From NCBI GenBank assembly GCA_029531755.1, contig CM055976.1, positions 6,848,493 to 6,912,492 on the forward strand: DNA of 64,000 nucleotides. Direction: 5' to 3'. How positions within the stretch are numbered: position 1 is the first letter of the stretch; each line of letters starts with the position of its first letter. The translations under genes were made by a program, and so were the position numbers. Source of the DNA: Holothuria leucospilota. Its lineage: Eukaryota. Positions 1-27,604 of the stretch are shown here, piece after piece. Below the pieces are notes generated by a model that was not told the origin of the DNA, did not search any database, and saw only the letters and a program-made list of their open reading frames with translations.

Positions 1-61
1 AAAGAAGAATGAATTTATGGCATGGATCTTGTTTTATTTAATTGTTAGGTTAATAAAGCAG

Positions 62-228
62 CAGTGACTCTTGCTCAAATTAAACGGATGTTGGTGGAGG
101 GAGGAGCCACTGAGAAACAGCTTGAGGACAAAAGCAAGCAGTTTTACAGTCAAATATGTCACAAAGGAACTAACCATGATGCAATTGACACAAAGCGTAA
201 GATAAATCAGATGCAAGAGCTATGCACG
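62..228 (+). CDS. PARP4: Internal exon of the PARP4-like gene (PARP helical/regulatory domain segment). Translation ...VTLAQIKRMLVEGGATEKQLEDKSKQFYSQICHKGTNHDAIDTKRKINQMQELCT. The gene continues upstream of the window. Alternative acceptor at 48/49.
   Basis: Open frame between acceptor aataaagcAG (59-61) and donor ACG|GTAAGA (229). The motif LEDKSKQFYSQICHKG aligns with the PARP1 regulatory-domain segment ILDLSNRFYTLIPHDFG. Phase 0 at the 3' end. Confidence 0.5.
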
Positions 229-656
229 GTAAGATCACTAGGAATACTTTCTTTGACTGTAATGGACTTAGCTTAAAACATTTTTTCATGAAAGAATAAT
301 TGTTTGAATGTTGGATTTTTTAACTTTTATATAAATTCAGCATTATACCATTATTAAAGTATGTTACAAATATCATAAACACCTCTTACACTTGATGCCA
401 AACGACTTATCAGCAGAGGCATCTACCAGTAACGTCTACAAGCCCTTGATAGCACTGTTATCCAGACTTTAATTGTGAATACAGTGACTTGAGAAAAAGT
501 ACACACGACCTGAGACAAAGTGCACAAGACCTAAGACATAGTTATCAACAAGACATAAACTCATGATGAGTTGTAGTTTGTTTGGTGTCATGTTTCAGCA
601 AGCATCTATTCAGTGTTCCTGATCACTTTCCAGTGTAAAATGTGTCTACCATTTTT

Positions 657-684
657 AGCTCAGCTGAAAGCTTTCAGCTGAGCT
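657..684. repeat. 28-bp perfect palindrome AGCTCAGCTGAAAGCTTTCAGCTGAGCT followed by ATTGCTGTCG. Its head is related to the family 2 elements (TTAGCTCA-hairpin-TGAGCTATTGC).
   Basis: Direct reading. It has the same framing sequence ttAGCTCA...TGAGCTATTGc as 28511 and 47549. Confidence 0.5.
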
Positions 685-2974
685 ATTGCTGTCGTGCACG
701 GCAAAACTTCTACGTCACGGCAAACGTCTGTCACCATAACATTTGCGTTTAAGTGCCTGACATTTCGCTGTTTTTCATTAGATTTGGCTGAAATTCAGTA
801 GAGATGTTAGCAAAAGTGGTATCTGTATGCTGCGACTCTTTTCGATTAATTTGGCTGCTATTTGACCTCGGGAGGGGGCTTTGTTTGAAAACGTAAAATT
901 CCCTACTTGTCTTTCAGTTTTGCACCAATCTTGATAATATGTTTCATATAGATAGTTCAATTTGTGCTGAACAAAAGTTAAATTTTTTTTTCGTTTCTGC
1001 AATCATTAAAGGCATGAAAACATCACTTTTTGAAACAAATTCTGGCGAAGTCCGCATGTTCCGGAATACGTCGAGAATCCCAGTTGTTATCATTTGAGAG
1101 ACTGCAACGAAACCAAGTACAAACGTATACTGAACATATATAAATGTACAGGACGTCTCGTGCTTAATCGTGTGGAAGTGTTTACGCAAAGTGCAGTGTA
1201 TCGACTTTTGAATACCGTACGTGGGCTACCCCACTATGTCAGACTATGTTTGCTCAGCTCTTTGCTTTCCAAACCAGGGATATGACATGAATAAGGAATA
1301 TACCGTACATCCTACTATGGAGGCGTTACGTCATGAACATGTGGTGCTGATCTCATTCAGGCGTTTTAATAATAGACTAGCTAAATTGGTTGGATCACGG
1401 TTAGGCCTACTCGAAAAGAAATACCGGACGTTTGCAAGTTATGCAAGTTCTTGCGAATATGTGGCCTTGTGCGAAACATAGGCTAGTGGTATAAGCTAGG
1501 TGGCAGAAACAAGTATTCAACTTAGCCTGATGTCTGAATGGTTTTAGGAGTTTGGCTTAAAGTTTAAAGAGAATATATCCAGTCGCCTCAAGTTTCAAGT
1601 TATTTGTAAACATTACCTTAATCTTTCAAATTTTCTTGTATCTGCTTTACAAACATTCTTCTTAACATTTCTGGACAAAAAATTTTTTAGTATGAAAGGT
1701 AAACAAATGACTTATCTTCCTTAATAGTAAATTAGTTTATATTTGTCGCATGACACTCGGGTACACTATTTCAAGTTACTAGGGTGAATGTTGTCTAGGA
1801 AATGTCGTACGAGGAAAGAGGAACCCACCCCTTTCTTTTAAACAAAGAACATGGCACGTTGATTGAAAATACAAAGCTTCATATGGTTTAAGCTTAACGG
1901 TTGTGCTAACATTCCAAAAACAATTTTCGGTTTGAAAAAGAAAACGTGCTTTTTGAAGGCCTGTGCCATAAGTCAGTCTCGGAGCCTGCAGGAATTGTGC
2001 AGCTCAGGCTTCTAGTCAAGCGGGCCAAGGGGGCGAATCCCTCTTTGAAATTTGTTCGCCCCCTAGCAAGTTTTCAAGTTGCCATTGGCTTAATGGCATT
2101 TGTACACATTTGGCCCCCTTAAAAATTTTTTAGCCCCTGGAAGCCATTTTGCCCCCATTCAGTACCTTGTCAAGCTACAAGCCTGGTGCAGTCACATGGG
2201 CATCGACACTGCAGGAACCGCCCCAGTCTTGTTTTCCGTTGCCGAAAGCCCCACCAAGTTGTTAAGGGGAAGCCATGGGGGATGATATTTCAATAGCCTT
2301 AGACTTAGTATAAGTGTGCATATTTTCCCAACGCTCTCTACGAACTGTAGTTACCCTCCGGCCTGTTGGGACACATTCACGGGTCCTAAAAGCGATCGAC
2401 GATTTATATACCTGGTAGATCCCAATCATAAAAATGTTATGCAGTAAAATAATGTTGTAGGGGAAAACGGGACTAAAGAGTACTCAGAATTCGAGGCGCG
2501 TAAAGAATTTAATTTGGAAATTATCCCTTTATATTGAGCAATTGAGCAGTTTTGGTTTTTCCAAATCATAGCCTGGCAACACTCATTGGAACTTCTGTCC
2601 CTGGACAAGTTCAAGGAATATCTCTGGGGCAAAATATCCCTTTTAAGACCTTTAACCATTTGTAAAATTTCTTTATCGGAAGTTACTATCTGGGTCTAAT
2701 TATGGAAAACAAATGAGGTCTACAAAGCAGCACACTCATAAATATTCATTATTTGTATACTAACATCTGTGCAGTATATAAAGTTAACTTTGTGTACCAG
2801 ATTTAGTCTTTCAGAGACTTCAGGAGTTCAATACATATTTCATTGCATTTATATTTATCTCTTTGTTTTCTAACGTACGTATGATCAACATGAGTTACAG
2901 TCCCATCCAAAATATTGACTGCAGACTTTTAGGTCAACAGGAAAAGCTGAGCTTCGGCAACATTGTTGCGCTTG

Positions 2975-5045
2975 TTTTGGTTACTATGAAAGAGAAACCT
3001 ATGCGTTCATGATGGTGTGTGTGTGTGTATTAAAGTATGTGTGTTTGTGACACTTTGCTTATTAACACAATATCTCAAGAAGGGAAAGTGTGACAGTTCT
3101 CAAAACTTGGTACATAGATGCTGAATATTAAGAGAAACAAACCTATTGTCTTTATGTAGGCCAAAGCACATCTGGGGTCAAACTCTGAAAAACTTGTTAA
3201 CACAATATCTCCAGGTAGAAAGCTTGGATAAATTTCATACGTAGTTTATGGATGCATTATGGTCTGAGGAAGAATCCTGTTGTTTTTGGTGGAAGTCAAG
3301 GTCATTTGAAGTCACAAGGGTCAAACCCTGAAAACCTTGTTAACATGATATCTCAAGGGAGGAAGCTTGGATAAATGTCATACTTAGGATGTAGATGCCT
3401 TATGGTGAACAGAAGACTCTGTTGTTTTTGTTGGATGTCAAAGGTCATCTGAGGTCACTGGGGTTAAGCTCTCAAATTGTTTTTTTTAACACAATATCTT
3501 GTGGTGGGAAGCTTGGATAAATTTCATACTTAGTATGTAGATGTGTTATGGTCAGGGGAAGAACCATATGGTTTTTTGGTGGAGGTCAAAGGTATAAGGT
3601 CCCTTGGGGGTCAAACTCTGAAAACCTTGTTAACATGATATCTCAAGGAAAGAAGTTTTACTAAATTTCATACTAGATGCCTTATGGTGAGAGCAAGAAC
3701 TTTTGTTACTTTTATACTTAGTATGTAGATGTGTTATGGAGGAAGAACCCTATTGTCTTTGGTAGTTGTCAAAGGTCATATAAGGTCACCAGGGCCAAAC
3801 CCTGACAAATTTTAACATGATATCACAAGGTAGGAAGCTTGGATAAATGTCATACTTAGGATGTAAGTGCCATGTGGTATGAGGGAGAATCCTGTCATTT
3901 TGGTGGAGGTCAAAGGTCATCTGGGGTCACCAGGGGTCAAACCCTGAAAACCTTGTTTAACATGATATGTCAAGATAGGAAGCTTGGCTGAATTTCATAC
4001 CTAATATGTAGATACCTTATGGTGAGAGGAAGAACACTTTGTTATTAGTGGGGGTCAAGGGTCATCTGGGGTCACCAAGTGTCAATCCCTGAAAAACCTT
4101 TTGAACATGATTTCTCAAGTAAGGCAGCTTGGATAAATTTCATACTTAGCATGTAGATGCTTTATGATAAAAGGAAAAACCCTGTTGTTTTTTGTGGAGG
4201 TCAAAGGTCATTTTGGGTCACTGGGATCAAACTCTGTAAACCTTGTTAACATGGTATCTCCAGATAAGAAGCTTGGATAAATTCATTATTTAGTATGTAG
4301 GCATGCTTTGGTGACATTTAAAACCCTATTGTTTTGATGGAGGTCAAAGGTCATCTGGGGTCAAAACCTGAAAACCATTTTAACAGCAAGGTAGGAAGCT
4401 TGGATAGATTTCGTATTTGGTATTTGGTTGCCTTATTGTCAGAGGAAAGACCCAGTTGTTTTGATGGGGGTCAGAAGTCATCTGGGTCACCAGTGGTCAA
4501 ACTCCTGAAAACTTTTTTAACACGATGTCTCAGGATAGGAAGCTTAACTAAATTCCATACTCTACATCTAGATGCCATATGGTTAGAGGGAAAACTCTAT
4601 TGTGTGATAGTGGAGATCAAAGGTCATCTGGGGTCACCAGATGTCACAAAGCAAAATTTCCCAAGAATTCCCAATATCGTTATCTGACTCACTGGAGGTC
4701 AAAAAGGAAAATTTCCCAAGGAATTCCCAAGATCTTTATCTGGGGTCATTGGAATTCAAAAAGCAAAATTTCCCAAGGATTCCCAAGATCATCATGTGGG
4801 GTCACCACAGGTCCAAAAGCAAAATTTATGAAGAGTTCCCAAGATTGTCATCTGGAGTCACCAGAAGTCAAAATGCAAATTTCCCAAGAATTCCCAACAT
4901 CAAATATGAACACAAAACTATTTTTCCACATGTTAAGATAGCATTTGACCAGTGACTGAAAGAAATGCGACAACATGACATTATTTGGAATAAAACATAT
5001 ATCATGGAAACCTCAATGCATTTTGCTATCTGGTTAGTGAAAAAA
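2975..5045 (+). mobile_element. Composite satellite-carrying element, family 1, copy A. It has a head (gaaagagaaacctrtgc...catgatg), a (TG)n tract, about 12 diverged units of a ~145-bp tandem repeat (core GGTCAAAGGTCATCTGGGGTCAC), a tail carrying ~60-bp subrepeats (aaagcaaaatttcccaagaattcccaagatc), and a conserved terminus (...gacaacatgacattatttggaataaaacatat...gcatt...ctggtt).
   Basis: The same head/array/tail architecture recurs at 35510-37770 and 50945-52890. The periodicity is visible from the recurring ggtcaaaggtcat / cttggataaatttcatacttagtatgtagatg motifs. Confidence 0.8.
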
Positions 5046-6218
5046 AGGGTTTCAGTGCAATTCAACATGTTAAAATTAAGGGTTGGAAGCCCTTTCTACT
5101 GTATTTTCATTTTGATAGGTTGGAATTTTGTAATGTATATTGGAGCATGCACCATTATCTACATCAATGCCCATTTGACCTGTCTGTGATGTCAAACTTT
5201 TTTCAGTGAATTGATGCAATCAGAGTTACATGAAAGTAATGTTCTAATAGACTGTAGAAGTGCTGTTTTTCTGTATGACATTTAGCCTGCTGTAATCAGG
5301 CTATTGTTGAGTTTTATCAGCTACGAGTACAATTCTTATTATTTGCTAACCTAATGTTAATGTACAGTACACAGACAAAGTTTAATACAATACAATAGCC
5401 TGCCAACTTTCTAGCCAATCTCATTTCCGAGACAAAAATAACTTCATGTTAATTAATACACACGTCATCAATGTTGCTAAGGGGTGGAGTCAACATGAGC
5501 GACCGGTTGCTCCGCTACAGCAGACAACTCTTTTCACTTGTATACACGTTATGCAGTGCAGCACGGCTATTACTGTATAGTTACTGGCTTAGCTGCTACT
5601 GTGTACATGTATACATATACAGCTAGCAAGGAACGTTGTCGTCTTGCGGCCATGCGAGGGCCTATAGACAGGCCAGTTTGTACAAACCGGCAAGATCTGG
5701 GACAAGATCCTCCGCCTAACGTTAGGCTTGACTTTTCACTGCAAGGATTAGCTCGATGTTTATCCCATACATGATTATTACGTACCATTTTAAGATGTCA
5801 CCGTATCTTCAGAGTATTCGTATGTGCGTCGTCGCAGGCCGTTGATAGGCATGAATAGTTAGTACCGTGAACACCATGTGACCTTCTTATGAATAATAAT
5901 TTATCCCGCATTTTGGGGATTCGTGTAAATGAAAACTGGACGAAGGTTTGCAGACTCTGTATAGAATATATATACAGGGTGTATTATGATTTCTGAGAGA
6001 GTGCCATTTTTTGGAATCTGCTACAGAGTCTGCTCCGCAGGCTATATGACATTTAGGTGGCATCTATTATAAAACGAAAAGTTCTCCCTATGACTTGATT
6101 GTACCAAAACAACAGGTGCTGAAGTTATTCAATGCCAAAGACAATTATTGAGGAATTGTTTAACAAACTTTTATTAAATGTTCCTGTAATGGTAAGTAGT
6201 TTCCTTCAATTATTGTAG

Positions 6219-6474
6219 TCTTGAATGTGGACAGGAATTCTTCTTTACTTAACACTATAGTGGTACTAGTTGATACAGAACACATTATTTCCTCTGCTGT
6301 CCCATTCTGTCAGCTTCTTCAAGATGTGATGAATGTACAAGAAGCATCTGACTGGAAGAAGAATGTGAACATCACCAACAAGTACCGTAGTTTGAGATGT
6401 AACATCCAGAGTGTTGACACATACAGTAGTCAGTATCAAACAGTCATGCGAATCATTGGAAAAGAAGCAGTGGA
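6219..6474 (+). CDS. PARP4: Exon at the boundary of the PARP regulatory and catalytic domains (...VLVDTEHIISSAVPFCQLLQDVMNVQEASDWKKNVNITNKYRSLRCNIQSVDTYSSQYQTVMRIIGKEAV|E). It starts in phase 1, so a small upstream exon appears to be missing from my model.
   Basis: Acceptor ttattgtAG at 6216-6218 and donor TGGA|GTGAGT at 6475. The frame is continuous into the next exon (ga+a=E). The segment NKYRSLRCNIQ...RIIGKE is compatible with the PARP1 region preceding the HGS motif. Confidence 0.55.
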
Positions 6475-7747
6475 GTGAGTTATTAGTTTGGTGTCTTTAT
6501 GAGTTTATTCTTTAAGGAAAAGATTATTCTTATTGGTTTTCTGGTAGCATGTAAGTATAGAGGAAAATAGCGAAACATTTTTGCAGTTTAATGAGTTGGA
6601 TGTGTCTCACATTTAACACTGGTAAGTTTGAGATGACAAAAGTCTTTCTTCATAGAGGCCTTTTTAGCCTATTGTTTTTAATCAAGATACTTTTTTGAAA
6701 GTTAGTTCAAAAGGTTCTTAAAAACAGAAGGCTGTCATGTTCAAATGTTTGAATGGTCAAACCAACATTCAGACATTTAAATGGCACCTTTTTTAACCAA
6801 ACGCTTTTAACAGCAGACTTACTCATTAAAGACAAAATAAATTCAGCATCATTTTTTGACCATGTTTTTGTTTTGATATCCTTTCATTCAAATGACGTTT
6901 ATTTGCCAAATTAATAAGTGAATAAAGCTGCAAATATATAACTGTCACAAATGGGTAAATTTTTATTCACAGCACACCTCCGGGCTACAGTACTTTATCG
7001 CCCATACAAAATAGGAAGCAGCCACCATATGCAGGCAGTTGTGGGCCCATGGATATAAATGATGTTAAAGTCATGTTTAACTGCACACTAAAATGCTCAG
7101 TTGAGAAAACCCATGCAGGACTGCTAAAATATTAAGTTACGCATTGTGTGTCAAAAACATCACAAGGTCATTACTGTGTACTAGCTTGTTGACAAGATTC
7201 TAGTCTGTCATTGGCTGAAACATTTTGGTCCATGAAAGTAATGAAGATGAAAAGTTGGCATTAATTAACCCAGATAGTTGTGTTTGCATTGCCGCAAATT
7301 TCAATCAGTTTTTACAGTTTCTTTAGTGAAAACATAGAAAACTTTTGTACATGAAGCTATATGCACCATTGTTTCGTATGTATGAAATTTTCATGATAGT
7401 CGGTCGATTGCCTGTGCCTGTGGGGGTAAGATTATATAACAGTTGCTTTGGGTATACAGGAGAACCACAGTGTACAAGTGAAATTGACACACAGGATAAC
7501 AAGAGTTGCAGAACTTGCCATACCTAGGCTATGCTGCACACTCTGCCACATGCATTGAGAATGCCAAAATTAGACACCTGAATTGGCATAAATATTGTTA
7601 CAAAAAGCCTCTTTCAGCATATACTTTGGTATAGAAAATGTGTATATTTTATGGCAGATTGTTTAAACATGATTGACTTAGATTTATAAAACAATAAAGT
7701 GTGTTATCTGTGGTTTTATCATTTGTAGGATCTTACAAATCATGCAC

Positions 7748-7790
7748 AGGGTGTGTGTGTGTGTGTGTGTGCATGTATGTGTGTCTAGGG
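7748..7790. repeat. (TG)n microsatellite in intron 2. Nearby at 8349-8392 lie a T25 homopolymer and a G-run.
   Basis: Direct reading. Confidence 0.9.
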
Positions 7791-8584
7791 AAGGGGGAAG
7801 AGTTAGTTATATATAAAGTGTGTATGCCCACAGTTGATCAAGTCTGACTGATTTTCAAAGGATGCTAGGAAGGGCAGAGGGGAGGGGGAGGCTTGAAAAA
7901 AAATGTGGTTTGATGTTTTGCACCCTTGTGAATACGATGAAACTTGGATAACTCTACATGGTATTCAGAAAACCTAACTTCTGTACATGTTAACTAGCTG
8001 TATAGTTGCACTTATTCTTAAAACGATATTTGGAGAGAATTGGGAGTTTTAGGCAGGTTTTATTTTGATCCTTTGCCAGGTAATAGGTGAGTGTTTCATT
8101 TTATAGCAGTCTGTGGTTTTCGCAAGTGGCCTAAACTGAAAAATATTCCAAACAGGAATTGAAACATTTAATTGGAAGCCGTTCAGTGTGAAGTTGCAAT
8201 AGATAAGCCATTGCAGTCTTCTCCCTCATTTATGGCTGCAGTATCATGGTAACATAGTCCCCTCAAGGCCTGACATATTGTACTGTATTCTTACTAGTTT
8301 TGGACTGCATGTTGTGGGTGAAAGTGTTTATCATCTTTATGTGTGTGGGTTTTTTTTTTTTTTTTTTTTTTTGGGGGGGGGTGGCCTTCTTAAGAGTCTT
8401 ATTGTTTATGCTCATTTGTTGTTGTTTGACACTTTGTCTAATTCTTTTGTCTGCTCTTTGTAGTTTTTACTTTGTATGGCTGTTCATTGTTTCTGTGTAT
8501 GTGTATGGGGGCCTTGTGGAAGATAAGCTTTGGTTTTAACACTGAGTTACTGTGGATTAAAAAACTTAAGTAACATAAAATAAT

Positions 8585-8835: not shown

Positions 8836-8967
8836 CGCTTAGCGCTTTAAAACAACTGCCCTTAAAGGCCTGTATCATTTATTTTATTGAAATAAAATAC
8901 TTTGATATTTTTTATTTTATCCATTTTTAAAGGATGTGCTGATATCCTTGTTTTCAATCATTTACAG

Positions 8968-9105
8968 AAGTAGCAGAATACAAGTCACAAATGTTTATTC
9001 TCTGACAAGACCTTTGGAAGATAGCATCTTTGCACCTAAAGGGAGAAAAGTTACATCACTTGTGCATGCTACCAGGCCTACATCACTTCTTGGAATTCTG
9101 TCACG
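8968..9105 (+). CDS. PARP4: PARP catalytic domain exon (SSRIQVTNVYSLTRPLEDSIFAPKGRKVTSLVHATRPTSLLGILSr). It contains the His of the catalytic H-Y-E triad (HAT in place of the HGS motif).
   Basis: Acceptor catttacAG (8965-8967) and donor CACG|GTAAAT (9106). It aligns with PARP1 [29 protein letters not shown]. Phase is consistent with both neighbouring exons. Confidence 0.8.
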
Positions 9106-9803
9106 GTAAATTTTAGCCAAGGGAAAATATACCCTTGAAAATCTTAAGCTTTTTATTGCTGTAATGAATGTTTGTATTTTGGCTATGATGTTTTGGTAAA
9201 TTTGAAAATATTCACCAGTGCCTCTGGTCTTTAGGTTATGAGAGTGTAGTGGACCATTGGCTTTAAGGTGTTGGACTTGTGATCCCAGGATTGCCATTTT
9301 GACTGCTTGGGTCATTATGTCATATCCTTGGGTAAGATGCTTTCTCTCAATTGCATCTCCCCACCCAGGAGTTAAATGGTTAACTGTGAGGTGAATTGTC
9401 ATCAGGTACACTGTTTAGTCTGCTGCCACACTAGAGGGGTTACCTCTGGGAGGATTTACCATTGGGCAGGGGTAATATATATGAAGTCCTTTGAGGCTTA
9501 TCGACAGTGTAAAGTGCTATAAAAACAAATTATCTATTACAGTGATTATTTCAGTTCTTAGTAGGTTTAGTGCCTGTCTTGTTTGGGCATTTGCATGTGC
9601 AATGGATAAATTTACATCTCTCTTTGCCTTTCAGATGCAGTTACATATTACTGATTGAAGTGTGCAAAATATCTTTAATGTAAAAATGTTTCATTACATA
9701 TAGTCTGTAGCAAGTTGGGTACATTTTCTTGCGCAGCTGGTTGCGATGTTTTACTAAGTAGTAATGTGTAATGGTAAAACATGAAAGTATGATTTCATTT
9801 CAG

Positions 9804-9902
9804 AGGTCTTCTCCCACCAAAGATAGTTCAAGAGGATGTTGGTATCGAGAGAAGAGATTATGGCTTTTTGGGCCAAGGAATATATTTTGGTGATGACATA
9901 AG
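9804..9902 (+). CDS. PARP4: PARP catalytic domain exon ((R)GLLPPKIVQEDVGIERRDYGFLGQGIYFGDDIr). It contains the GxGIYF motif with the catalytic Tyr.
   Basis: Acceptor ttcatttcAG (9801-9803) and donor ATAAG|GTGAGT (9903). It aligns with PARP1 [27 protein letters not shown]. Confidence 0.85.
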
Positions 9903-10594: not shown

Positions 10595-10778
10595 ATCCAA
10601 CATGCACTTCACTGAACCAAACGGTTGCACTAAGACTCGTTTCCTCCTTACGTGTGAAGTCATTGTGGGGAAGCAGTATAAAACCTGCCAACACCAACCA
10701 GACTTGGTCAATCCTCCACCAGGATATGACAGTGTCCTAGGTGTAAAGAACTCTGATGGAAACCATTCAATGTTCAAG
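10595..10778 (+). CDS. PARP4: PARP catalytic domain exon ((R)SNMHFTEPNGCTKTRFLLTCEVIVGKQYKTCQHQPDLVNPPPGYDSVLGVKNSDGNHSMFK). It contains the catalytic Glu, in LLTCEVIVG.
   Basis: Acceptor cctcattggcAG (10593-94) and donor TTCAAG|GTATGT (10779). It aligns with PARP1 [56 protein letters not shown]. Confidence 0.85.
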
Positions 10779-11538: not shown

Positions 11539-11692
11539 CACAATGAATACACCATCTATGATGTTGGTCAGCAGCGACTGAGCTACCTGATAGAGTTTGT
11601 CCAAGTGAATGAGACACCTGCCATTTACCAGCCAGAGTTCTCCACAGAAGATGTAGAAGAGCCCACTGTGGAAGAAAAGAATAAAGAGATAG
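11539..11692 (+). CDS. PARP4: C-terminal end of the PARP catalytic domain plus a linker (HNEYTIYDVGQQRLSYLIEFVQVNETPAIYQPEFSTEDVEEPTVEEKNKEIg).
   Basis: Acceptor ggacattacAG (11536-38) and donor GATAG|GTACAG (11693). It aligns with PARP1 [22 protein letters not shown]. The exon ends in phase 1, which is completed by the next exon (g+at=D). Confidence 0.8.
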
Positions 11693-12830: not shown

Positions 12831-13063
12831 TTACTGTATATATGAAGGCTTAGCTTCCCTTTAAATGTACAAATGCATATCATATGCATAGCTTAAACTG
12901 CAATGACATATGCCTGTAACACAATAGAATATTTTTCCTTAATAAGTCATAGTAGCAAAGGGTTATTGACACTTACATTGCCTACGGTATGATGTACCTG
13001 ATTAGTTTAAATAGCTTATTTTTTTTAAAATGTGTAAATGTCTCACACTGTGGTTCAATTTAG

Positions 13064-13194
13064 ATGTATCCGATGTGATGGATGTAAGTGACCCTCTTGA
13101 TAAGGTCACCCCAGGTTTGCAAACAAGTGGAGGTCAACCTGTCCTTCTTGAGAGGGTTTCAGTCAAGGCTAAGATGATGGACCTTGTAGCTCAG
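13064..13194 (+). CDS. PARP4: Exon at the start of the VIT domain ((D)VSDVMDVSDPLDKVTPGLQTSGGQPVLLERVSVKAKMMDLVAQ).
   Basis: Acceptor ttcaatttAG (13061-63) and donor CTCAG|GTGACC (13195). The pattern PL..V.V.A.V is typical of the N-terminal end of VIT domains in ITIH, VWA5A and PARP4 proteins. Confidence 0.7.
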
Positions 13195-14215: not shown

Positions 14216-14434
14216 GTCACTGTCTTTCAGAGGTATCGCAATACTAATACCAAACCCATTGAGGCCAAGTACGTCTTTCCATTGGATGATACTGCTGCAG
14301 TGTGTGGCTTTGAAGCTTTCATTGGAGATAAGCACATCGTGGGAGAAGTTAAGGAGAAGGAGACAGCTCACAAGGAGTATAGAGAGGCAGTTAGTCAGGG
14401 ACACGGTGCATACTTGATGGATGAAGAATCAGCG
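14216..14434 (+). CDS. PARP4: VIT domain core exon (VTVFQRYRNTNTKPIEAKYVFPLDDTAAVCGFEAFIGDKHIVGEVKEKETAHKEYREAVSQGHGAYLMDEESA).
   Basis: Acceptor cattatcAG (14213-15) and donor TCAGCG|GTACAC (14435). It carries the signature VIT motifs EA.Y.FPL...AAV.GF...I..K.I.G.VKEKE.A...Y..AV..G.GA.L. Confidence 0.85.
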
Positions 14435-15688: not shown

Positions 15689-15891
15689 GACGTCTTCACA
15701 GTTAGTGTTGGGAATCTACCGCCTTCTACAGAAGTAATAATCAAGATCATCTATGTGGTTGAATTAAGTTTGGATGATGATCATATAGTTTTTCATCTTC
15801 CTGGGAGTCTGGCATCATGGAGGAAGGAAGGAGCTTTGGCAGAAGAAACTCAAAATGTGACATCAACTGTTTCAACTGGAGATGAAAAGAT
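15689..15891 (+). CDS. PARP4: VIT domain exon (DVFTVSVGNLPPSTEVIIKIIYVVELSLDDDHIVFHLPGSLASWRKEGALAEETQNVTSTVSTGDEKi).
   Basis: Acceptor ctttcttggcAG (15686-88) and donor AAAGAT|GTAATT (15892). It carries the motifs F.V.VGNL.P...V.I...YV.EL that are characteristic of VIT domains. Confidence 0.8.
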
Positions 15892-16771: not shown

Positions 16772-16853
16772 AAAGTTTGAGATGTCATTATCAATGGAGA
16801 TGCCATTTGATATCCAGACTATAAAGTGTTCCACTCATGATATCAAAATTAAA
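16772..16853 (+). CDS. PARP4: Short exon after the VIT core ((I)KFEMSLSMEMPFDIQTIKCSTHDIKIK).
   Basis: Acceptor aacttttacAG (16769-71) and donor TTAAA|GTAAGT (16854). Phase is compatible with both flanking exons and the frame is open. Confidence 0.55.
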
Positions 16854-17436: not shown

Positions 17437-17577
17437 AGGACTGCTGCGAAGGCATGCATTACTTTGGCAGAGGGGGAAGATTGTCTCAAGGAAGGCTTTC
17501 ATCTTTCTGTGAAACTCCATAAAATTCACCAACCACACATGTGGGTTGAGCAGAACCCTAATGACAAGGACAGTCAG
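17437..17577 (+). CDS. PARP4: Inter-domain exon (RTAAKACITLAEGEDCLKEGFHLSVKLHKIHQPHMWVEQNPNDKDSQ).
   Basis: Acceptor ttgcattttAG (17434-36) and donor GTCAG|GTACTT (17578). The exon runs phase 0 to phase 0. The segment P.MWVE..P resembles the linker of VIT-vWA proteins. Confidence 0.65.
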
Positions 17578-18126: not shown

Positions 18127-18313
18127 GCTTGCATGCTGACCTTTTATCCAGAATTTGAAGTCCCTCAACTCAAGAAACCAGATGTCACTGTGATATTGGA
18201 CTGTTCCAATTCTATGAAGGGGGAAAGCTTTGAGCATGCAAAGAAAGTTTGTTACATGATTGCCTCTCTAATGCCAAAAAACTACAGGTTTAATCTAGTT
18301 AAGTTTGGTACAA
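18127..18313 (+). CDS. PARP4: N-terminal vWA domain exon (ACMLTFYPEFEVPQLKKPDVTVILDCSNSMKGESFEHAKKVCYMIASLMPKNYRFNLVKFGTn). Its MIDAS-like motif is DCSNS, not the canonical DxSxS.
   Basis: Acceptor ttctcatcAG (18124-26) and donor ACAA|GTAAGT (18314). It carries the vWA hallmarks V..DCSNSM.G and FN...FG. Confidence 0.8.
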
Positions 18314-19122: not shown

Positions 19123-19381
19123 ATTTCAAAGAGTTCTACCCTGCCTCTCGTCTGTCCTCCAAGATTGATTTTGATGAGCTAAAAGACTTTTTAGCTGGTG
19201 CATCTCCTGCAGAGGGCAACACTGATGTTTGGCGCCCGCTTCATTCACACTACCTTCTTGAGGGTGAAAATTTGCGCAATGTGTTTATCATCTCTGATGG
19301 GCATATCAATAATGAGACAGAAACTTTGAAGAGCATAGCAAAAAATTCTTCTCACACTCGAATTTTTACTTTTGGAGTGAG
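19123..19381 (+). CDS. PARP4: vWA domain exon ((N)FKEFYPASRLSSKIDFDELKDFLAGASPAEGNTDVWRPLHSHYLLEGENLRNVFIISDGHINNETETLKSIAKNSSHTRIFTFGVs).
   Basis: Acceptor cgtttgcAG (19120-22). The donor is assigned to GTGAG|GTTAGA (19382), because only this phase keeps the next exon open. The motifs GGT, IF..SDG and R.FTFG match the vWA domain. Confidence 0.75.
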
Positions 19382-19699
19382 GTTAGAGAAGCTTACGTTT
19401 TCATGGAGAGGTGCAATATATTTGCAGCCCTGGGGGGCATGAGATGGGAAGTGGTGTGATTGGGGGATAACTAACTTAGTGCATTCATATGCAGCATTCA
19501 CATCATAATATTGTATGAAAAACAATCAGAAAACCAAGTTTGAATTTCTTTTTTGTCTCATTGCTGAAGACCAAAAAGTTTTGAAATCTTCCTGCTTTGA
19601 ATGTTAAGTGTGTGACATTAGAGACTGACAAAATGGTTGTCATACTGTAAATAATTTGTTCTTAGCATTCTTAGCATTCTTTTGTTTTGTATTTCCTAG

Positions 19700-19799
19700 C
19701 ACAACTTGCAACAAACATATGTTGAAAATAATGGCTCGCAGTGGTGCAGGATCCTTTGAATTCTTTGACGGAAAAACAAAGTCAGCCTGGCAAAGAAAA
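19700..19799 (+). CDS. PARP4: C-terminal vWA domain exon ((S)TTCNKHMLKIMARSGAGSFEFFDGKTKSAWQRK).
   Basis: Acceptor tatttcctAG (19697-99) and donor AGAAAA|GTAAGT (19800). It resembles the VWA5A segment SLIKGIARASGGTSEFI. Confidence 0.7.
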
Positions 19800-20064
19800 G
19801 TAAGTAAAGTCATCATTGAGCCCCTTGCAGGGATTTTATCATTTATCTTGCATGCTTTTCTATGAGTTAATGCTTTTGAAACCTGTTGGGAATCAGTGAA
19901 TAGACTGTACTTGTCTAGTAACTTGCACTTGTAGCAGTGTTACATATTAAAACTGTGTCTGTATAATTTGGGACAGAAAAAATGGCTTAATTTATTATGC
20001 AACTATTCTTATTATGATATAGCTACAGTCTTCATTAAATAGTTAAATTATTCCTTTACTATAG

Positions 20065-20235
20065 GTGAAGAATCAACTACGGCGAGCAGGACAGCCATCG
20101 GTGAACTCTTTGAGTGTAAAGTGGCACCAGTTTGACAATTATGCTCCCAAGCCCCGTCAGGCCCCTCGTCACTTGGGAGCTCTTTTCAGTGGATCACGTC
20201 TGGTAGTGTTTGGTATTGTGCCCTATTGTACATCG
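20065..20235 (+). CDS. PARP4: Post-vWA exon (VKNQLRRAGQPSVNSLSVKWHQFDNYAPKPRQAPRHLGALFSGSRLVVFGIVPYCTS).
   Basis: Acceptor cctttactatAG (20062-64) and donor CATCG|GTACGT (20236). The exon runs phase 0 to phase 0. It resembles the VWA5A region ...SLSW.LP....L.P......RGQRL..Y. Confidence 0.7.
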
Positions 20236-20705
20236 GTACGTTACCCCTATATTCCTGTTTAGTACTATTAGACTAGGTCTATAGTATTGGCAATAAGCAA
20301 ACAGTAAACATTTTTTGTCAGCAAATCCAAATCAGTAATAAAATTTGGCTATATTGGTCTGCTCACCAAGTTGGAAAGTGTTTGGTAACTTTGTTTACTG
20401 ATAATCCTATCTTTTGTAAGTTTGCAATTGATTTTTAGGGCTCAAAATTCTTTGAATGATGGCCTGTTTGTGCACAAAGTATCATTTTTATAAGGCTTTT
20501 TGTAGAGCTCTTTGTGAATTGTAAGGACTGTTTTTCTTTTCACAGTATTTTTAATTGAAATTTTAAGGAATGAACTTCATAATTTCATACTTGTCTAGTA
20601 GTTAATATGCTTGATAGGTCAGTTGAAAGACTGTGGCAGATTCCATATTGTATTTTATAGAGATCACAACAAGTCACAAGAGACAGTTTCATTTTCTCTT
20701 CCCAG

Positions 20706-20786
20706 GCAACTTTAACAGCTGTTATTGACGGTCAAGAGATATCAACTGTTGTGTCCACTAGTGACTTATGTATCACAAAAGGACTG
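20706..20786 (+). CDS. PARP4: Short in-frame exon (ATLTAVIDGQEISTVVSTSDLCITKGL).
   Basis: Acceptor ttctcttcccAG (20703-05) and donor GGACTG|GTAAGG (20787). 81 bp, phase 0. Confidence 0.5.
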
Positions 20787-22609
20787 GTAAGGGAATGTGA
20801 AGTGGAGTAGATTTTAAATGTCAATAATATATTAAGTATGGGTCTATGCAGTTCTTTGACCTTAAATAATACTGATTAGAGCTTATCAGAAAATTATGTT
20901 ACATCAGAATGTGGAAGAAGTGTATGTATCCGCTGTATAAAGTACTTGCTGTCATTGAAATGTATTTAACAGCGTAAAGGGCTAAACGAATTAAATTTTG
21001 GTCTGTTTATTATGTTTATTATCAGAGGAAGAAGTGTTATGGCTTTTAGCAGTTTGAATGCATTTATGTGTCACAGTGGGCTAAGCTTAGTGTGAATGCA
21101 GATTATTGTAATTTAAAACGAGGAATTTACAGTACATAGCACAGAGGTTCTCAAGTGTTTTTGGCAGTGGGCAACCACTGGAGAACCTAGAATGTAGCAG
21201 TTCTATTCAGAAATAAACTTGATAAGGTGAGGTAAGACATGCTAATAATTAATGAAACCAGTTCTCATTCATTCAACTGGGCAACTGTAGTCACATCTCT
21301 TGAAGAAAGATTATAACTTATCCTTGCACTAAGTGGGTAAAGGTAGATGGACTCACAGTAGTTAAGTTAAGCATTAATTAAACATAAATCTGTGACAAAA
21401 TGCAGATCTGAAGCTCTTTTAGGAGGTGACCACATTGCAGATATCAGGTCGTACGAGATATCGCCTTTTGTGGTACTAAAACTGACAACATCTTAAAACC
21501 ATGATGTAAATGAATTCTTAATTCAAAATAAAGTGGCTCGGTCAACACTATTTTCATGAAGTGAGGTTCTTGCAGAAGAGGTTGACTGCTTTGACCCTGT
21601 CCATAATATTTGGAAACTGCCCAAAAGTTCAGTGTGAAATTGCATTTGGAAGCCAGCATTAAATAAAAACCCAATTAAAACAGATAAAATAGCATTCTGG
21701 CTCCTATATGTACCAGACAATAATTTCAGAAAAGTTCAGGGCTGCAGGTATTGTAACGTGATCAGGTAGAGAAGACACAGGCATCAGGTGTTGAGATTAC
21801 ATGAGTAAAAGACTTCATTTGGCCAGAGCAGACCAAGAAGTCAAGTCACTCAGCAACCTGTAGGAGGAGCACTGTACTCCTCCAACCATACTACAAGCAA
21901 AGGTTGACCAGAAACTATATATTTGCCAAACATTCACACAAGCAGTAATGGAGGGAATTCTTGGTCTAAAAACATGGGATTTACTAATATTTATACAGCA
22001 TTAATCTGGGTAAAGATAGGTGACAAAATGTAATGCAACAGCATGTAAATGAATTATCAGGACCAGTAAACTTCCAATAAATACCAATTTGGCCTGAACA
22101 AAAGAACGTAATATTCATGACATTCCAGAGTGATACTAGGACAGTGTTTTAAAGGGTGCTTTCCATTTCAGTATAATACAGAGATATTGATCCAGGAGAT
22201 GGTCACTTGTGGGTGGAAATTGTCAAAAAGGCATATTTTGGCCATTTAGAGAACCCCTGACTTGACAAAACTACATTAGAATGGGTTCATATTAAAGCTA
22301 TCTGTAAGATAGTCCCATTATGTTTATACCATTACAAGCTGGTGGGATACATATGTGTTGAAAACTAGGACCTCGAAATTGACAAAAACACCAAAATGAC
22401 ATTTTGCAGTTTATTTGTGGGATTTTAAAAAATATCAAATTAGTCAAAATTCAGCAGTCAACAGTTTGTCTAAATTTCTGGGTTTCATTTTTCATGATGT
22501 TTGACTCATACAAATATTATGGGAATTTGTGGAGTTGGTGGAGCAATAAGTTTCTTCCAGTTTGGGAGATTTGGCATAGAATGACCCTTTCCTTAATTAT
22601 TTTGAGCAG

Positions 22610-22792
22610 ACATTACATCGTCTGACAGCTCGGGCTCTTATTCGGGACTGGGAAGATGGCATGCTAGATATGGACCGCATAGAGGAAGAGATAGCTAAGG
22701 AGAAAGAGAAGCAAGCAATTATTTCTCTGAGCAGACAATACAGCATTGTTACTAGTCTTACAAGCTTTGTTGCAATCGAAAAGAGAGAAAAG
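22610..22792 (+). CDS. PARP4: Exon encoding TLHRLTARALIRDWEDGMLDMDRIEEEIAKEKEKQAIISLSRQYSIVTSLTSFVAIEKREK, which is the conserved C-terminal block of the ITIH/VWA5A/PARP4 family.
   Basis: Acceptor tattttgagcAG (22607-09) and donor GAAAAG|GTATGT (22793). The motifs LHRLAA..LI and S..TSFVA.E are conserved in VIT-vWA proteins. Confidence 0.7.
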
Positions 22793-23716
22793 GTATGTGT
22801 CAAGTCCATTGTTTTGAAAAATGAGGCTATATGTGACAATACATTTATGACAGTATTGAAGTTGATACTATTTTAAAAGGGAGCTTCACTTTTCAAAGGA
22901 CTAGCTGTAAGAACTCTTCATGAATGAACAACACTAATTATGCCCATTGTAATATGTTCTCATACAGGGACGTAATTGTAAGAAAAAGAAATCAGATATA
23001 CTTTCCCGTGGTAGGTTTCTTTTCTATGCTCTCCTCTCAATGTTGTGATCAGTAGCAAATGCTTATTAATGAATGAGGGTAAAGGCAAAATTCCTTAAGA
23101 GAAGAGTCATTCTCTCTCTCTCTGAAAGTTATTTCTTTATTATTCATTGTGCTAGTTGATGGCCAGTGAATTTACAATGTGTATCAGAGTACAGGAAATA
23201 GTATTCTGAAAATGTTAGGGAACACAATTCTTCTGTGTTCTGCAAGAATTAAATTAATCCTGTAACTGTATTGAGGAATCATGTCATCATCCTGAAATTT
23301 ATTCCTTCAGGATGACAACATTTGGGCTGGAATTAAATGAAGGATGGCCTTCTTATTTTGGACAATGGCCTTGGTGCCTTCAAAATGGCATACCTTTCAA
23401 TGCCACGTTAAGGCCCTTCCTAACAAAATACAACCAAATTTAGTGTCAGATAATACAAAATATCTTGTTTGATCTTGGTGCTCTTTAAGATAAATTTGGC
23501 CTAAAAAGGGATATGAAAATGGCCTTGCACTCATAATTTCTTATATCCAGCCCGAGACATGATATGTTTATTTGTATATAGTTTGTGATCTTGTTGTTAA
23601 TATTTCATTATCAGAGAGAGAATGATATTTATCAGATGACTTGCAGAAAGAATAAGTGATATCTACATGCTGTTAAAGGTTTTACCAGTTTCATTTGTAT
23701 TGATCACTCATGACAG

Positions 23717-23854
23717 CATGAAGTACAGAGGAAGTCCAACATGGAAGAGAAATTGAAGGAATTACTTCAGATGGAAGACGTTGATGTTTTACCTTACATG
23801 GATTGGCAACTCAGGCAGGAAATGACCATTGACTTTAATGATAAAGACAAATGG
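23717..23854 (+). CDS. Candidate exon (HEVQRKSNMEEKLKELLQMEDVDVLPYMDWQLRQEMTIDFNDKDKW). It has an open frame but a weak GTTTGT donor.
   Basis: Acceptor cactcatgacAG (23714-16). It is open in the phase predicted from the previous exon. The donor AATGG|GTTTGT is non-consensus. There is no homology support. Confidence 0.35.
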
Positions 23855-24707
23855 GTTTGTAAATGTTTAGAAAAAATTTAAAGTTTAGAAAAATTTCAAA
23901 TTTTAGAAAATTTTTAATTCTCAAGATGTAAAATCCTTTTCCATTTCTTGTTAGAGAAATGTAGATGAAAGCAAATACAAACAATAGCACTCAGTGATTA
24001 TTGAGACTTGTGAAGTATTTTAGTGAAGTATATAAATTAGGCTTATCAAACCTAATTGAGGGCTGCCATTTTTTTCTTTTTTTTTCTGTTTTCATGATTA
24101 TAGCATGATGGTGCAATGTTAGCTATTAAGTATTTATCTCAGGCATCTACTCTGCACATGGTACCCTGGTTTCGTCTGGTTTCCCCTCCCTCCCCCCCCC
24201 CTTGTTATTGGTCAATTATTTACAGCACATTACTGTTGGTCAGTCAGGACCCTCGATCCCTATCCCATGTTAGTAACATAATACTTCATTGCAGAGTGAA
24301 GAGAATACACAAGTAACATGTAGGCTGTGATTGGTACACTGTCTCTTGGCCTTTAATCAAATGGGTTGAAATGGCAAATTTGTAGCAAGATTTTGATGGT
24401 ATTTACTTGTTTAAGTAAGTAATTTATCATTAATCTGTATATTTTAGAGAATCTTCTAGTTTTCGTGATTTGAAACAATGGCCACGTGTTTTACTAGACA
24501 GAGTTGCTGTCAGTCCAAGGCACAGGTATTGGCTCAGTGTATTATGGCTTGAAATGAACAGGAACTGATGTTTAGCACAAAATTCAGATTGTGTGCCTTG
24601 AGGTAACTTTCAGTTTCAGGTAGTACTGTGTTACAAAGACATGGTTCTGTGGTCAGAAGATTTCAGGCGTAATAGTTCTGTGGTAACAATTATTTTTCTT
24701 TGTGTAG

Positions 24708-24782
24708 GATAAAGAGGCTAGAAAATATGAAGATGGCATGCATGATGATGAACCAAGCTCTAGTGATGAGGAGAGTATAGAG
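24708..24782 (+). CDS. Candidate acidic exon (DKEARKYEDGMHDDEPSSSDEESIE). Its 3' end, together with the adjoining intron start, is the progenitor of the downstream 67-bp tandem array.
   Basis: Acceptor ttctttgtgtAG (24705-07) and consensus donor ATAGAG|GTAAGG (24783). Phase 0 to phase 0. Confidence 0.4.
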
Positions 24783-26880
24783 GTAAGGACTGCAGTAACT
24801 ATATACAATTGTGATTGAAACCAGCTGTAGTGATGAGGGCTGCATAGAGGTAAGGACTGCAGTAACTATATACAATTGTAATTGAAACCAGCTGTAGTGA
24901 TGAGGGCTGCATAGAGGTAAGGACTGCAGTAACTATATACAATTGTGATTGAAACCAGCTGTAGTGATGAAGGCTGCATAGAGGTAAGGACTGCAGTAAC
25001 TATATACAATTGTGATTGAAACCAGGTGTAGCGATGAGGGCTGCATAGAGGTAAGGACTGCAGTAACTATATACAATTGTGATTGAAACCAGCTGTAGTG
25101 ATGAGGGCTGCATAGAGGTAAGGACTGCAGTAACTATATACAATTGTGAATGAAACCAGCTGTAGTAATGAGGGCTACATAGAGGTAAGGACTGCAGTAA
25201 CTATATACAATTGTGATTGAAACCAGCTGTAGTGATGAGGGCTGCATAGAGGTAAGGACTGCAGTAACTATATACAATTGTAATTGAAACCAGCTGTAGT
25301 GATGAGGGCTGCATAGAGGTAAGGACTGCAGTAACTATATACAATTGTGATTGAAACCAGCTGTAGTGATGAGGGCTGCATAGAGGTAAGGACTGCAGTA
25401 ACTATATACAATTGTGATTGAAACCAGCTGTAGTGATGAGGGCTGCATAGAGGTAAGGACTGCAGTAACTATATACAGTTGTAATTGAAACCAGCTGTAG
25501 TGATGAGGGCTGCATAGAGGTAAGGACTGCAGTAACTATATACAATTGTAATTGAAACCAGCTGTAGTGATGAGGGCTGCATAGAGGTAAGGACTGCAGT
25601 AACTATATACAATTGTAATTGAAACCAGCTGTAGTGATGAGGGCTGCATAGAGGTAAGGACTGCTGTAACTATATACAGTTGTAATTGAAACCAGCTGTA
25701 GTGATGAGGGCTGCATAGAGGTAAGGACTGCAGTAACTATATACAATTGTGATTGAAACCAGCTGTAGTGATGAGGGCTGCATAGAGGTAAGGACTGCTG
25801 TAACTATATACAGTTGTGATTGAAACCAGCTGTAGTGATGAGGGCTGCATAGAGGTAAGGACTGCAGTAACTATGTACAATTGTGATTGAAACCAGCTGT
25901 AGATGAGGGCTGCATAGAGGTAAGGACTGCAGTAACTATATACAATTGTAATTGAAACCAGCTGTAGTGATGAGGGCTGCATAGAGGTAAGGACTGCAGC
26001 AACTATATACAATTGTAATTGAAACCAGCTGTAGTGATGAGGGCTGCATAGAGGTAAGGACTGCAGTAACTATATACAATTGTGATTGAAACCAGCTGTA
26101 GTGATGAGGGCTGCATAGAGGTAAGGACTGCTGTAACTATATACAGTTGTGATTGAAACCAGCTCTAGTGATGAGGGCTGCATAGAGGTAAGGACTGCAG
26201 TAACTATGTACAATTGTGATTGAAACCAGCTGTAGTGATGAGGGCTGCATAGAGGTAAGGACTGCTGTAACTATATACAATTGTGATTGAAACCAGCTGT
26301 AGTAATGAGGGCTGCATAGAGGTAAGGACTGCAGTAACTATATATAATTGTGATTAAAACCAGCTCTAGTGATGAAGGTAGTATAGAGGGTTTTCACGAT
26401 GTCACGTGATTATGCATCTCTCTGGTATTGAAGGGCAAGATCGTGCGTCTCTTTGATTTTGACTGTCACGGGTCCATTGTGTTACAGAAGTATCTATGGT
26501 TATGCGTGTGCGTGTGCAGTAAATACGCTTACTGCGTGTGTGTTTTGCCCTTCAATGCCTGGGATTCCCATGCATGTGACATCACATGAAATCCCTCTGT
26601 AGAGGAAGGGATTGCACTTACTATATACAATTGTGATTAAAACCAGCTCTAGTGATGAGGGCTGCATAGAGGTAAGGACTGCAGTAACTGTATATAATTG
26701 TGATTAAAACCAGCTGTAGTGATGAGGGCTGCATAGAGGTAAGGACTGCAGTAACTATATGCAGTTGTGAGTGAAACTAGCTCTAGTGATGAGGGCAGTA
26801 TAGAGGTAAGGACTTCAGTAACTTTATGCAGTTGTGAGTGAAACTAGCTCTAGTGATGAGGGCTGTAGTTATTTAGTTAT
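24783..26880 (+). repeat. Tandem array of about 31 copies of a 67-bp unit (GTAAGGACTGCAGTAACTATATACAATTGTGATTGAAACCAGCTGTAGTGATGAGGGCTGCATAGAG). It starts exactly at the splice donor of the exon 24708-24782. The unit is the last 27 nt of that exon plus the first 40 nt of the intron.
   Basis: Direct reading shows copies >90% identical, each containing a GTAAGG donor consensus. The exon 3' end agctctagtgatgaggagagtatagag matches the unit 3' part agctgtagtgatgagggctgcatagag at 23 of 27 positions. Confidence 0.9.
26389..26597. mobile_element. Small (~210 bp) hairpin-forming insertion that interrupts the 67-bp array. It is MITE-like.
   Basis: It breaks the array periodicity. Internal inverted repeats ggtattgaagggcaa / ttgcccttcaatgcc and cacgatgtcacgtgat / catgtgacatcacatg are present. 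Confidence 0.5.
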
Positions 26881-27478
26881 CATCTCAGATTGGTCTCTAC
26901 TGTCATAGATACATGAAGGAATCCTGCAATTTTAGTGATGAAAGTTTTCAAAATATCAGTGGAAAACAAGCCTGAGTTTTTACAGTTTACATGGATCTAA
27001 GAAATCACTGGAATGTTGTGAAGGATGTAAGTGAAATATGATTGTACTGACTTTCTATGTATGGAGAGAGCTACATTTTGTCATCAAACCATGCTCCTAA
27101 GTGGCTCCTATTTATCCCACTTTCTCTGTCTTTTGAACTTCCTCCTATTTCTTCTACTTTTTGCCTTCAAATTCTGCATCATCCTACTTTTCCTTCTTTA
27201 TCCCACTTGTTTGTATTTAAAAGAGATGTGTACCGTAGGATGTTAACGTTGTTGAAAAAAATCTCTTTAGAGTCACTATTCTGCCACTATTCCTGAGTAT
27301 GGATGAATAAACGCTTGCAAAAACCTGGCTTTTGTCCTACTTTTGGTCCTTAAAATCCTTCTGATATCCTGTTTTATGGAGAATTCGGATCTTATTTTAA
27401 TCCATTTTCTTTGCCTGAATTCACTTAAAAGCCTGTCATACATAGCTAAAGCGTAAATGTTTTTGTGTATTTTTCCAG

Positions 27479-27604
27479 AATTTGCCCTCTGCTGATCATG
27501 AAATAATGGATTATGCAGAAGAAGTTATCAGACACTTTGATGGGGAGGATTCTACTTCATCAGAAAGTGACTCTTCCTCAAGTGTGTGTTGTTATTCTGA
27601 TAAA
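27479..27604 (+). CDS. Candidate acidic, Ser-rich exon (NLPSADHEIMDYAEEVIRHFDGEDSTSSESDSSSSVCCYSDK).
   Basis: Acceptor gtatttttccAG (27476-78) and donor GATAAA|GTGAGT (27605). Phase 0 to phase 0. Confidence 0.4.

Follow-up and report, generated by a model that had tools for sequence, protein, structure and literature searches.

A probable PARP4 orthologue with an altered NAD+-pocket loop in Holothuria leucospilota

Does the 64,000-nucleotide stretch of Holothuria leucospilota DNA analysed here (GenBank assembly GCA_029531755.1, contig CM055976.1, positions 6,848,493 to 6,912,492 of the forward strand; hereafter the window) carry a single gene for the vault-associated poly(ADP-ribose) polymerase PARP4, and, if so, are the residues expected at its catalytic site retained? 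A preliminary description of the sequence had proposed a multi-exon PARP4 homologue at window positions 49 to 27604, with PARP catalytic, VIT and vWA domains and an intact His-Tyr-Glu triad. From the analyses presented below, we consider it very likely that the + strand from position 49 to at least 23854 represents the middle part of one protein-coding gene, the holothurian orthologue of PARP4. This is an ordinary, conserved animal gene, an added member of the PARP4 family whose only unusual feature is a remodelled NAD+-pocket loop. Its value lies mostly in annotation, in that the window provides an intact single-gene model of a holothurian PARP4.

Eighteen exons can be defined between positions 49 and 23854, with AG acceptors and GT donors throughout. 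As had been proposed, splicing them yields a continuous and phase-consistent frame, comprising 2811 nucleotides that encode 937 amino acids without a stop codon. The boundaries were placed by hand according to AG/GT sites, reading phase and agreement with homologues; a rough concatenation of open segments had already matched the Pfam families PARP, VIT and VWA before any boundary was placed. Canonical sequences are found at each of the 35 splice sites that bound the 18 exons, whose GC content is 42.3%, compared with 35.8% for the introns. The initial count of ‘at least 13’ introns of 0.4 to 5.7 kb gives way to 17 between homology-supported exons, ranging from 265 to 6085 bp. The order encoded within the 937-residue frame is the C-terminal part of the PARP helical domain (HD), the ADP-ribosyltransferase (ART) domain, the VIT domain, the vWA domain and a conserved post-vWA region.

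Exon 1 (49-228; acceptor ttaattgttag/GTT, donor ACG/gtaaga) encodes helical-domain (PARP_reg) sequence, VNKAAVTLAQIKRML...ELCT, and forms a collinear block with positions ~6470-6658 of the orthologous locus of Apostichopus japonicus (L001, MRZV01000344.1, with protein P0001 and an upstream 629-residue model). Exon 2 (6314-6474; LLQDVMNVQEASDW...GKEAV), which has phase-consistent junctions, completes the helical domain and begins the ART region; it is matched in tblastn searches by the PARP4 proteins of Amphiura, Saccoglossus, Ptychodera and Branchiostoma, and by L001 8018-8182 at 54%. In human PARP4, the counterpart of these two exons is the helical-domain region directly before the ART domain, where the alignment begins at residue 296. 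The ART domain continues through exon 3 (8968-9105), with the triad His in HAT at 9065-9073, and exon 4 (9804-9902), with the triad Tyr in GIYF. Exon 5 (10595-10778) carries an altered donor loop, (R)SNMHFT (Asn 10599-10601, Phe 10608-10610), as well as the peptide LLTCEVIVGK; A. japonicus and a TARA metagenome scaffold retain both the exon and its two splice sites. Exon 6 (11539-11692) encodes the end of the ART domain, including HNEYTIYD with the catalytic Glu, followed by an acidic linker towards the VIT domain.

The VIT domain starts in exon 7 (13064-13194; ~75% identity to A. japonicus), has its core in exon 8 (14216-14434; KYVFPLDDTAAVCGFEAF...; 88% identity to A. japonicus by tblastx) and ends in exon 9 (15689-15891), which then enters a beta-rich region. 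Exons 10 (16772-16853) and 11 (17437-17577) encode the region linking VIT to vWA. The vWA domain begins in exon 12 (18127-18313), continues through exon 13 (19123-19381) and ends in exon 14 (19700-19799). The conserved post-vWA region is encoded by exon 15 (20065-20235), exon 16 (20706-20786) and exon 17 (22610-22792; LTARALIRDWEDG...SLTSFVAIEKREK), the last of which retains 60-67% identity even to amphioxus and hemichordate PARP4. Exon 18 (23717-23854; ...EDVDVLPYMDWQ...) is the last exon supported by homology, and its unspliced frame would stop at 23879-23881.

The preliminary description had suggested a Pfam profile scan as a check, and this was conducted with the 18-exon product extended by the last exon of that description; every match fell within the 18-exon part. 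The VIT profile matched in full (positions 1-111, E 1.9e-38), PARP matched over profile positions 1-197 of 199 (E 3.2e-17), and the vWA domain, which follows VIT, was recognised by both VWA_3 (E 2.1e-15) and VWA (E 1.4e-11). PARP_reg scored 26.4 bits (E 8e-6), just under its cut-off of 26.8 bits, because the start of the window truncates this domain such that only profile positions 45-119 lie inside. These Pfam matches are far beyond chance.

A search of 5.8 billion proteins yielded 120 listed matches, all of which are PARP4-type proteins and nearly all of which are named PARP4, PARP4-like or poly(ADP-ribose) polymerase. The best match is from A. japonicus (69% identity), followed by proteins from brittle star, hemichordates, molluscs, amphioxus and corals (43-49%) and then by those of vertebrates (~40%). 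In hemichordates, brittle star, molluscs and amphioxus, a single polypeptide accounts for 100% of the query. The best match to a solved structure is human PARP4 (8sx1; E 1.5e-43, with the catalytic region aligned over ~270-290 residues), well ahead of PARP1 (8e-13), PARP3 (5e-10) and PARP2 (7e-9). A mid-protein catalytic domain followed by VIT and vWA domains is the definition of PARP clade 5, the vPARP group, with PARP4 in clade 5A (Citarelli et al. 2010, PMC2964712). The proposed PARP4 identity and the PARP-VIT-vWA order are thus upheld by the presence of HD, ART, VIT and vWA in one frame, by the uniform PARP4 type of the listed matches, and by human PARP4 as the best structure.

The same order of HD, ART, VIT and vWA is found in human PARP4 (8SX1, 8SWY; vault complex 9BW6), which shares the triad residues H438, Y477 and E547 and the DCS.S, Thr and Asp residues of the metal ion-dependent adhesion site (MIDAS) with the window protein. 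The two proteins differ in that their identity is only ~40%, and human HGS, STSIKYS and DDE are replaced by HAT, RSNMHFT and HNE. Closer in overall sequence are the PARP4-like proteins of other invertebrates (Amphiura filiformis, Anneissia, Saccoglossus, Ptychodera, Branchiostoma, molluscs and corals), which have the architecture BRCT-HD-ART-VIT-vWA, align over the whole query and carry HAS or HSS in place of HGS. Unlike the window, however, these proteins keep the STSxKYS loop and DDE. A gene of the type that encodes VWA5A or the inter-alpha-trypsin inhibitor heavy chains (ITIH) was also considered. Such proteins share with the window a VIT domain followed by a vWA domain with a MIDAS, but they have no ART domain, whereas the window ART and VIT domains are joined in one frame through exon 6; this candidate was rejected on the basis of the ART domain encoded upstream in the same frame. 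No VWA5A/ITIH-type protein is present among the 120 matches listed.

The A. japonicus locus offers the closest comparison for the gene model. All 18 exons are collinear with it and have the same intron positions, and the window introns are ~1.5 times longer. Over 707 residues, the spliced product is 71% identical to the annotated A. japonicus protein; the alignment has only small gaps, none of which falls at a junction between conserved domains, and it provides independent support for junctions 5 to 18. The A. japonicus protein shares the HAT, SN..FT and HNE variants with the window. Unlike the window, however, the A. japonicus locus is annotated as encoding two proteins, one of 629 residues (BRCT and PARP) and one of 1229 residues (VIT and vWA), and the annotation splits exactly at exon 5, where the assembly (L001 9896-10112) bears two 1-bp deletions. 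Both deletions are absent from the window and from TARA_SAMEA6005720, a 950-bp metagenome scaffold (L002) in which exon 5 of PARP4 from a third holothurian-like genome is found at ~585-770. Exon 5 of this scaffold shows 73% protein identity to the window exon and shares with it the SN.HFTEP loop and the splice sites. Judging from the sequence, the two A. japonicus deletions are probably assembly errors, because the A. japonicus sequence remains conserved in the shifted frames. Thus the published A. japonicus annotation divides a single PARP4 gene in two, and the window gives the intact version.

How much of the catalytic apparatus is retained? Seven of the nine peptides quoted in the preliminary description occur verbatim on the + strand, namely HATRP (9065-9079), GQGIYFGD (9871-9894), LLTCEVIVGK (10644-10673), a 50-residue VIT string (14267-14416), DVTVILDCSNSMKG (18181-18222), FNLVKFGT (18289-18312) and RIFTFGV (19359-19379). 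LLGILSRGL is real but is split over the junction of exons 3 and 4 (9086-9810), and IFIISDG differs in one letter from the actual peptide, VFIISDG (19281-19301). The triad of human PARP4 consists of H438, Y477 and E547 (Frigon and Pascal, PMC10711553), and HMMER alignment places the window residues His 9065-9067 (HATRP), Tyr 9883-9885 (GIYF) and Glu 11545-11547 (HNEYTIYD) at these three positions. The triad is therefore retained as claimed, but its Glu had been sought in the wrong place: the Glu of LLTCEVIVGK (10656-10658) aligns with human D504, in a column that is variable among orthologues (E, R, K, D, L or Q), and the true catalytic Glu resides in HNEYTIYD of exon 6. Nor is HAT in place of HGS a peculiarity of this protein, as had been supposed. 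HA[S/T] is usual in non-mammalian PARP4, with HAS or HSS being the rule in echinoderms, hemichordates, molluscs, cnidarians, fish, frog and snake, and HGS occurring only in the mammals aligned.

The earlier view that the vWA motif reads ‘DCSNS, not DxSxS’, with a possible loss of metal coordination, is a plain error. DCSNS (18199-18213) fits DxSxS exactly and, as LDCSNSM, is identical to the motif of Xenopus and python PARP4. The MIDAS is completed by Thr 19221-19223 (GNTD) and Asp 19296-19298 (SDG), both in exon 13, and nothing in these residues suggests a loss of metal binding by the vWA domain. By extension from the family (PMC10711553), the ART domain would bind NAD+ and transfer single ADP-ribose units, with His and Tyr holding NAD+ and Glu catalysing the transfer, and the VIT-vWA portion would serve as a metal-dependent protein-interaction module.

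The prediction of catalytic competence nevertheless holds in weaker form than first stated, since the triad is present but the donor loop that follows the triad Tyr has changed from STSxKYS, as found in other PARP4 proteins, to RSNMHFT. The STSxKYS loop, although not a formal membership criterion of PARP4, is a trait shared across the family, and its T, S and Y are conserved in 18-19 of 19 orthologues from coral to mammal; the window departs from all of this. The loop Ser and Tyr that come after the Thr presumably correspond by position to S904 and Y907 of PARP1. In PARP1, S904 and Y907 line the nicotinamide pocket. The Thr itself, T484 in human PARP4, is equivalent to PARP1 K903 (PMC10711553). 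A second change affects DDE, the two Asp residues before the catalytic Glu together with that Glu, which reads HNE in the window such that His-Asn takes the place of human D545 and D546. Of these two residues, D545 has been implicated in blocking the acceptor site and linked to the block on chain elongation (PMC10711553).

Neither change is private to the window. The loop reads SNMHFTEP in the window, SNIRFT·EP in A. japonicus and SNIHFTEP in the TARA scaffold, with splice sites conserved in all three, and HNE is also found in A. japonicus (the TARA gene call stops before that exon). Because the loop variant and HNE are common to holothurian sequences, the comparison suggests that the holothurian pocket is a constrained, still-used, modified site rather than a decaying one. 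A bolder version of this proposal is that holothurian PARP4 has undergone a lineage-specific and selectively maintained remodelling of its NAD+ donor and acceptor sites (STSxKYS to (R/G)SNx(H/R)FT and DDE to HNE), with catalytic behaviour unlike that of every other PARP4, in an animal without a recognisable vault-docking domain. We view this as a speculative idea that is rather unlikely to be correct. In this version, the change of DDE to HNE removes the acidic residue linked to the chain-elongation block (PMC10711553). In either event, a holothurian-specific change in an otherwise invariant active-site loop is a modest lead for the poorly understood PARP4, and is too unsurprising to alter current views.

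Several observations weigh against the assignment of this locus to a single, functional PARP4 gene. The ART domain is unusually divergent, as evident by a Pfam PARP score of 63 bits, compared with 107-133 bits in four other PARP4 proteins (three invertebrate, one mammalian) subjected to an identical scan. When near-invariant columns are defined as those in which at least 17 of 19 orthologues agree, the window keeps 61 of 63 (97%) in VIT, 31 of 36 in vWA and 50 of 56 in the post-vWA region, but just 39 of 55 in the ART domain, where substitutions are concentrated in the loop that follows the triad Tyr. The changed residues include the equivalents of PARP1 K903, S904 and Y907 and of human PARP4 D545 and D546, and on these grounds catalytic activity is not to be assumed from the His-Tyr-Glu triad alone. 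If the A. japonicus deletions were real, they would amount to loss of the ART domain in a relative. Moreover, the window begins inside an intron, and both the 5′ and the 3′ ends of the gene are missing. A search with the ART region found no transcript-derived protein from H. leucospilota itself. Finally, no sequence resembling MINT, the C-terminal domain of human PARP4, was found in a six-frame search of the window with the C-terminal tails of 106 homologues; the 3′ end may be located outside the window or have diverged past recognition.

The explanation that best survives as an alternative accepts PARP4 orthology but holds that the ART domain has become a pseudo-enzyme or has acquired altered catalysis, the gene being kept for its VIT-vWA scaffold and the triad being either a relic or the servant of a modified reaction. 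The contrast between ART and VIT in retained columns, the low Pfam PARP score, the replacement of STSxKYS and DDE (including the equivalents of PARP1 S904 and Y907), and the two frameshifts in exon 5 of the A. japonicus assembly are all consistent with this explanation. The triad is intact, however, and the replacements of Ser and Tyr by Asn and Phe are conservative. Also, the variant loop and its flanking core are conserved in three holothurian sequences, and HNE is conserved in the two that reach exon 6, which argues for purifying selection on the pocket. The A. japonicus sequence past the frameshifts stays conserved in shifted frames, as expected of assembly errors. We therefore favor a PARP4 orthologue with a modified and still-used pocket, and give the pseudo-enzyme explanation a small but appreciable chance of being right.

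A decaying, non-functional copy of PARP4 would also account for a divergent ART domain, satellite-rich introns and a missing 3′ end. Such a pseudogene is very improbable, given 2811 nucleotides of coding sequence without a stop or frameshift, canonical sequences at all 35 splice sites, the retention of 97% of invariant VIT columns, and an exon structure shared with the A. japonicus orthologue, to which the product is 71% identical. Equally considered and rejected was the possibility that, as in the two-protein annotation of A. japonicus, a BRCT-PARP gene lies next to a distinct VIT-vWA (VWA5A/ITIH-like) gene downstream. This is very improbable, since exon 6 encodes both the end of the ART domain (its last strand and catalytic Glu) and the linker to VIT and joins exons 5 and 7 in phase without a stop, the query is covered from end to end by full-length PARP4 proteins from other phyla, and the A. 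japonicus split coincides with 1-bp deletions in exon 5 that neither the window nor the TARA scaffold has.

Where, then, does this PARP4 gene begin and end? BRCT, WGR and the first half of the helical domain must be encoded upstream of base 1 of the window, and in A. japonicus BRCT is present in the upstream gene model of the orthologous locus. At the other end of the gene, no part of the window except exon 18 is matched by the C-terminal tails of the 106 PARP4 homologues; a phmmer search with these tails, vertebrate ones included, against six-frame open segments of the window found nothing beyond it. No homology-supported exon after position 23854 was found by tblastn, either with the C-terminal 540 residues of the A. 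japonicus protein or with each of its small exons under very lax settings. A tblastx comparison of window positions 23855-64000 with the A. japonicus downstream region, conducted without sum statistics, matched only a shared satellite. The annotated C-terminal 500 residues of A. japonicus PARP4 thus have no detectable counterpart in the window. In a database search, the A. japonicus C-terminal domain matched the same species alone, and no PDB chain, that of human MINT among them, resembled it.

In human PARP4, MINT is the C-terminal domain that interacts with the major vault protein (MVP) and docks PARP4 inside the vault, and the MVP residues that contact PARP4 are conserved only in vertebrates (PMC12280208). 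Because the window contains no detectable MINT-like sequence and the conservation of these contact residues is confined to vertebrates, vault association should not be assumed for holothurian PARP4. The lack of a recognisable MVP-binding domain bears on whether invertebrate PARP4 relates to vaults at all, and is a modest lead in that direction. Several invertebrate PARP4-like tails carry other segments where vertebrates have MINT. These are 14-3-3-like in the brittle star, hemichordates and amphioxus, similar to the actin N-terminus in the brittle star, Ptychodera and oyster, and ubiquitin in gastropods (proteins P0002, P0004, P0007, P0014 and P0005), and they may be either real fusions or chimeras of the gene models. 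None of these segments was found in the window.

Some candidates for later exons can be noted. The exon with which the preliminary description ended (27479-27604, + strand; NLPSADHEIMDYAEEV...SSSVCCYSDK; phase 0-0; acceptor tttttccag/, donor AAA/gtgagt) has good splice signals and a codon score that places it within the top 2.4% of intron controls, but it has no homology support. A second candidate (24708-24782, + strand; DKEARKYEDGMHDDEPSSSDEESIE; phase 0-0) has a pyrimidine-tract acceptor, ttatttttctttgtgtag, and a consensus donor, GAG/gtaagg. It received the highest codon-usage score, above all 255 intron controls, and its position, 854 bp past exon 18, is that of an acidic 24-residue exon in A. 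japonicus. At the DNA level, however, this candidate was no more similar to that A. japonicus exon than shuffled controls were.

An ab initio scan also revealed a candidate acidic mini-exon (LG.ELKEVETSDDE...) in three copies, which are intact at ~33.93 kb, interrupted by an in-frame stop at ~39.45 kb, and intact at 43551-43647. The A. japonicus gene model likewise has duplicated acidic exons, of 22 residues, within a tandem duplication of ~2.9 kb. In the window, positions 37767-47443 form a tandem duplication of a ~4.06-kb unit in ~2.4 copies of 92-95% identity (37767-41900, 41902-45960 and 45964-47443). A shorter segment related to this unit lies at 33702-34130, and each carries a copy of the acidic mini-exon candidate.

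Satellites had been described as part of transposons in several introns. They are indeed present, but within positions 49-27604 in two introns only, intron 1 and the intron after exon 18, and their transposon nature is not established. Intron 1 contains a composite dispersed repeat (3014-5035, + strand) that consists of (TG)n, a 143-145-bp satellite (3174-4363), a 56-bp satellite (4623-4901) and a conserved right flank of ~135 bp. This repeat recurs at 35585-37772 and 51594-52891, always in the + orientation and with a satellite unit of 143-146 bp across copies, and related satellite arrays are located at 28565-29073 and 47723-48886. A search of the composite repeat for terminal inverted repeats found none and no long protein-like open reading frame was seen, so the transposon label is unproven. 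Its satellite, with a unit of 145 bp, is also present in a downstream intron of the A. japonicus PARP4 locus (L001 30272-30640 and 33330-33590).

The intron after exon 18 holds a 67-bp satellite (24751-26865, + strand), with 24.5 copies at 95% identity (24751-26389) and four more at 26600-26865; this satellite is absent from the A. japonicus locus. The array starts inside the candidate exon at 24708-24782, and its unit is composed of the last ~30 nucleotides of that exon and the first ~35 nucleotides of the intron. Each copy consequently repeats the consensus 5′ splice site AGAG/GTAAGG, giving ~28 tandem donor sites.

Scans of the entire window for Rfam families and tRNAs gave no matches. The top-scoring ab initio exon candidate in the window is at 54829-55065 (+ strand), with 79 codons that contain much Lys, Arg, Ser and Glu (...SRRSHQKKKKKKKGKEDPLDQPAKWDKPRKRQSRSRSRDRESE...) and with AG and GT signals, and it could be either a late PARP4 exon or part of another gene. 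GC skew, calculated in 2-kb bins, is positive in nearly every bin up to ~56 kb and is zero or negative from 56 to 64 kb. The + strand transcription unit may end at this flip and be followed by a gene in the opposite orientation; in A. japonicus, the gene next to PARP4 on its downstream side is on the minus strand.

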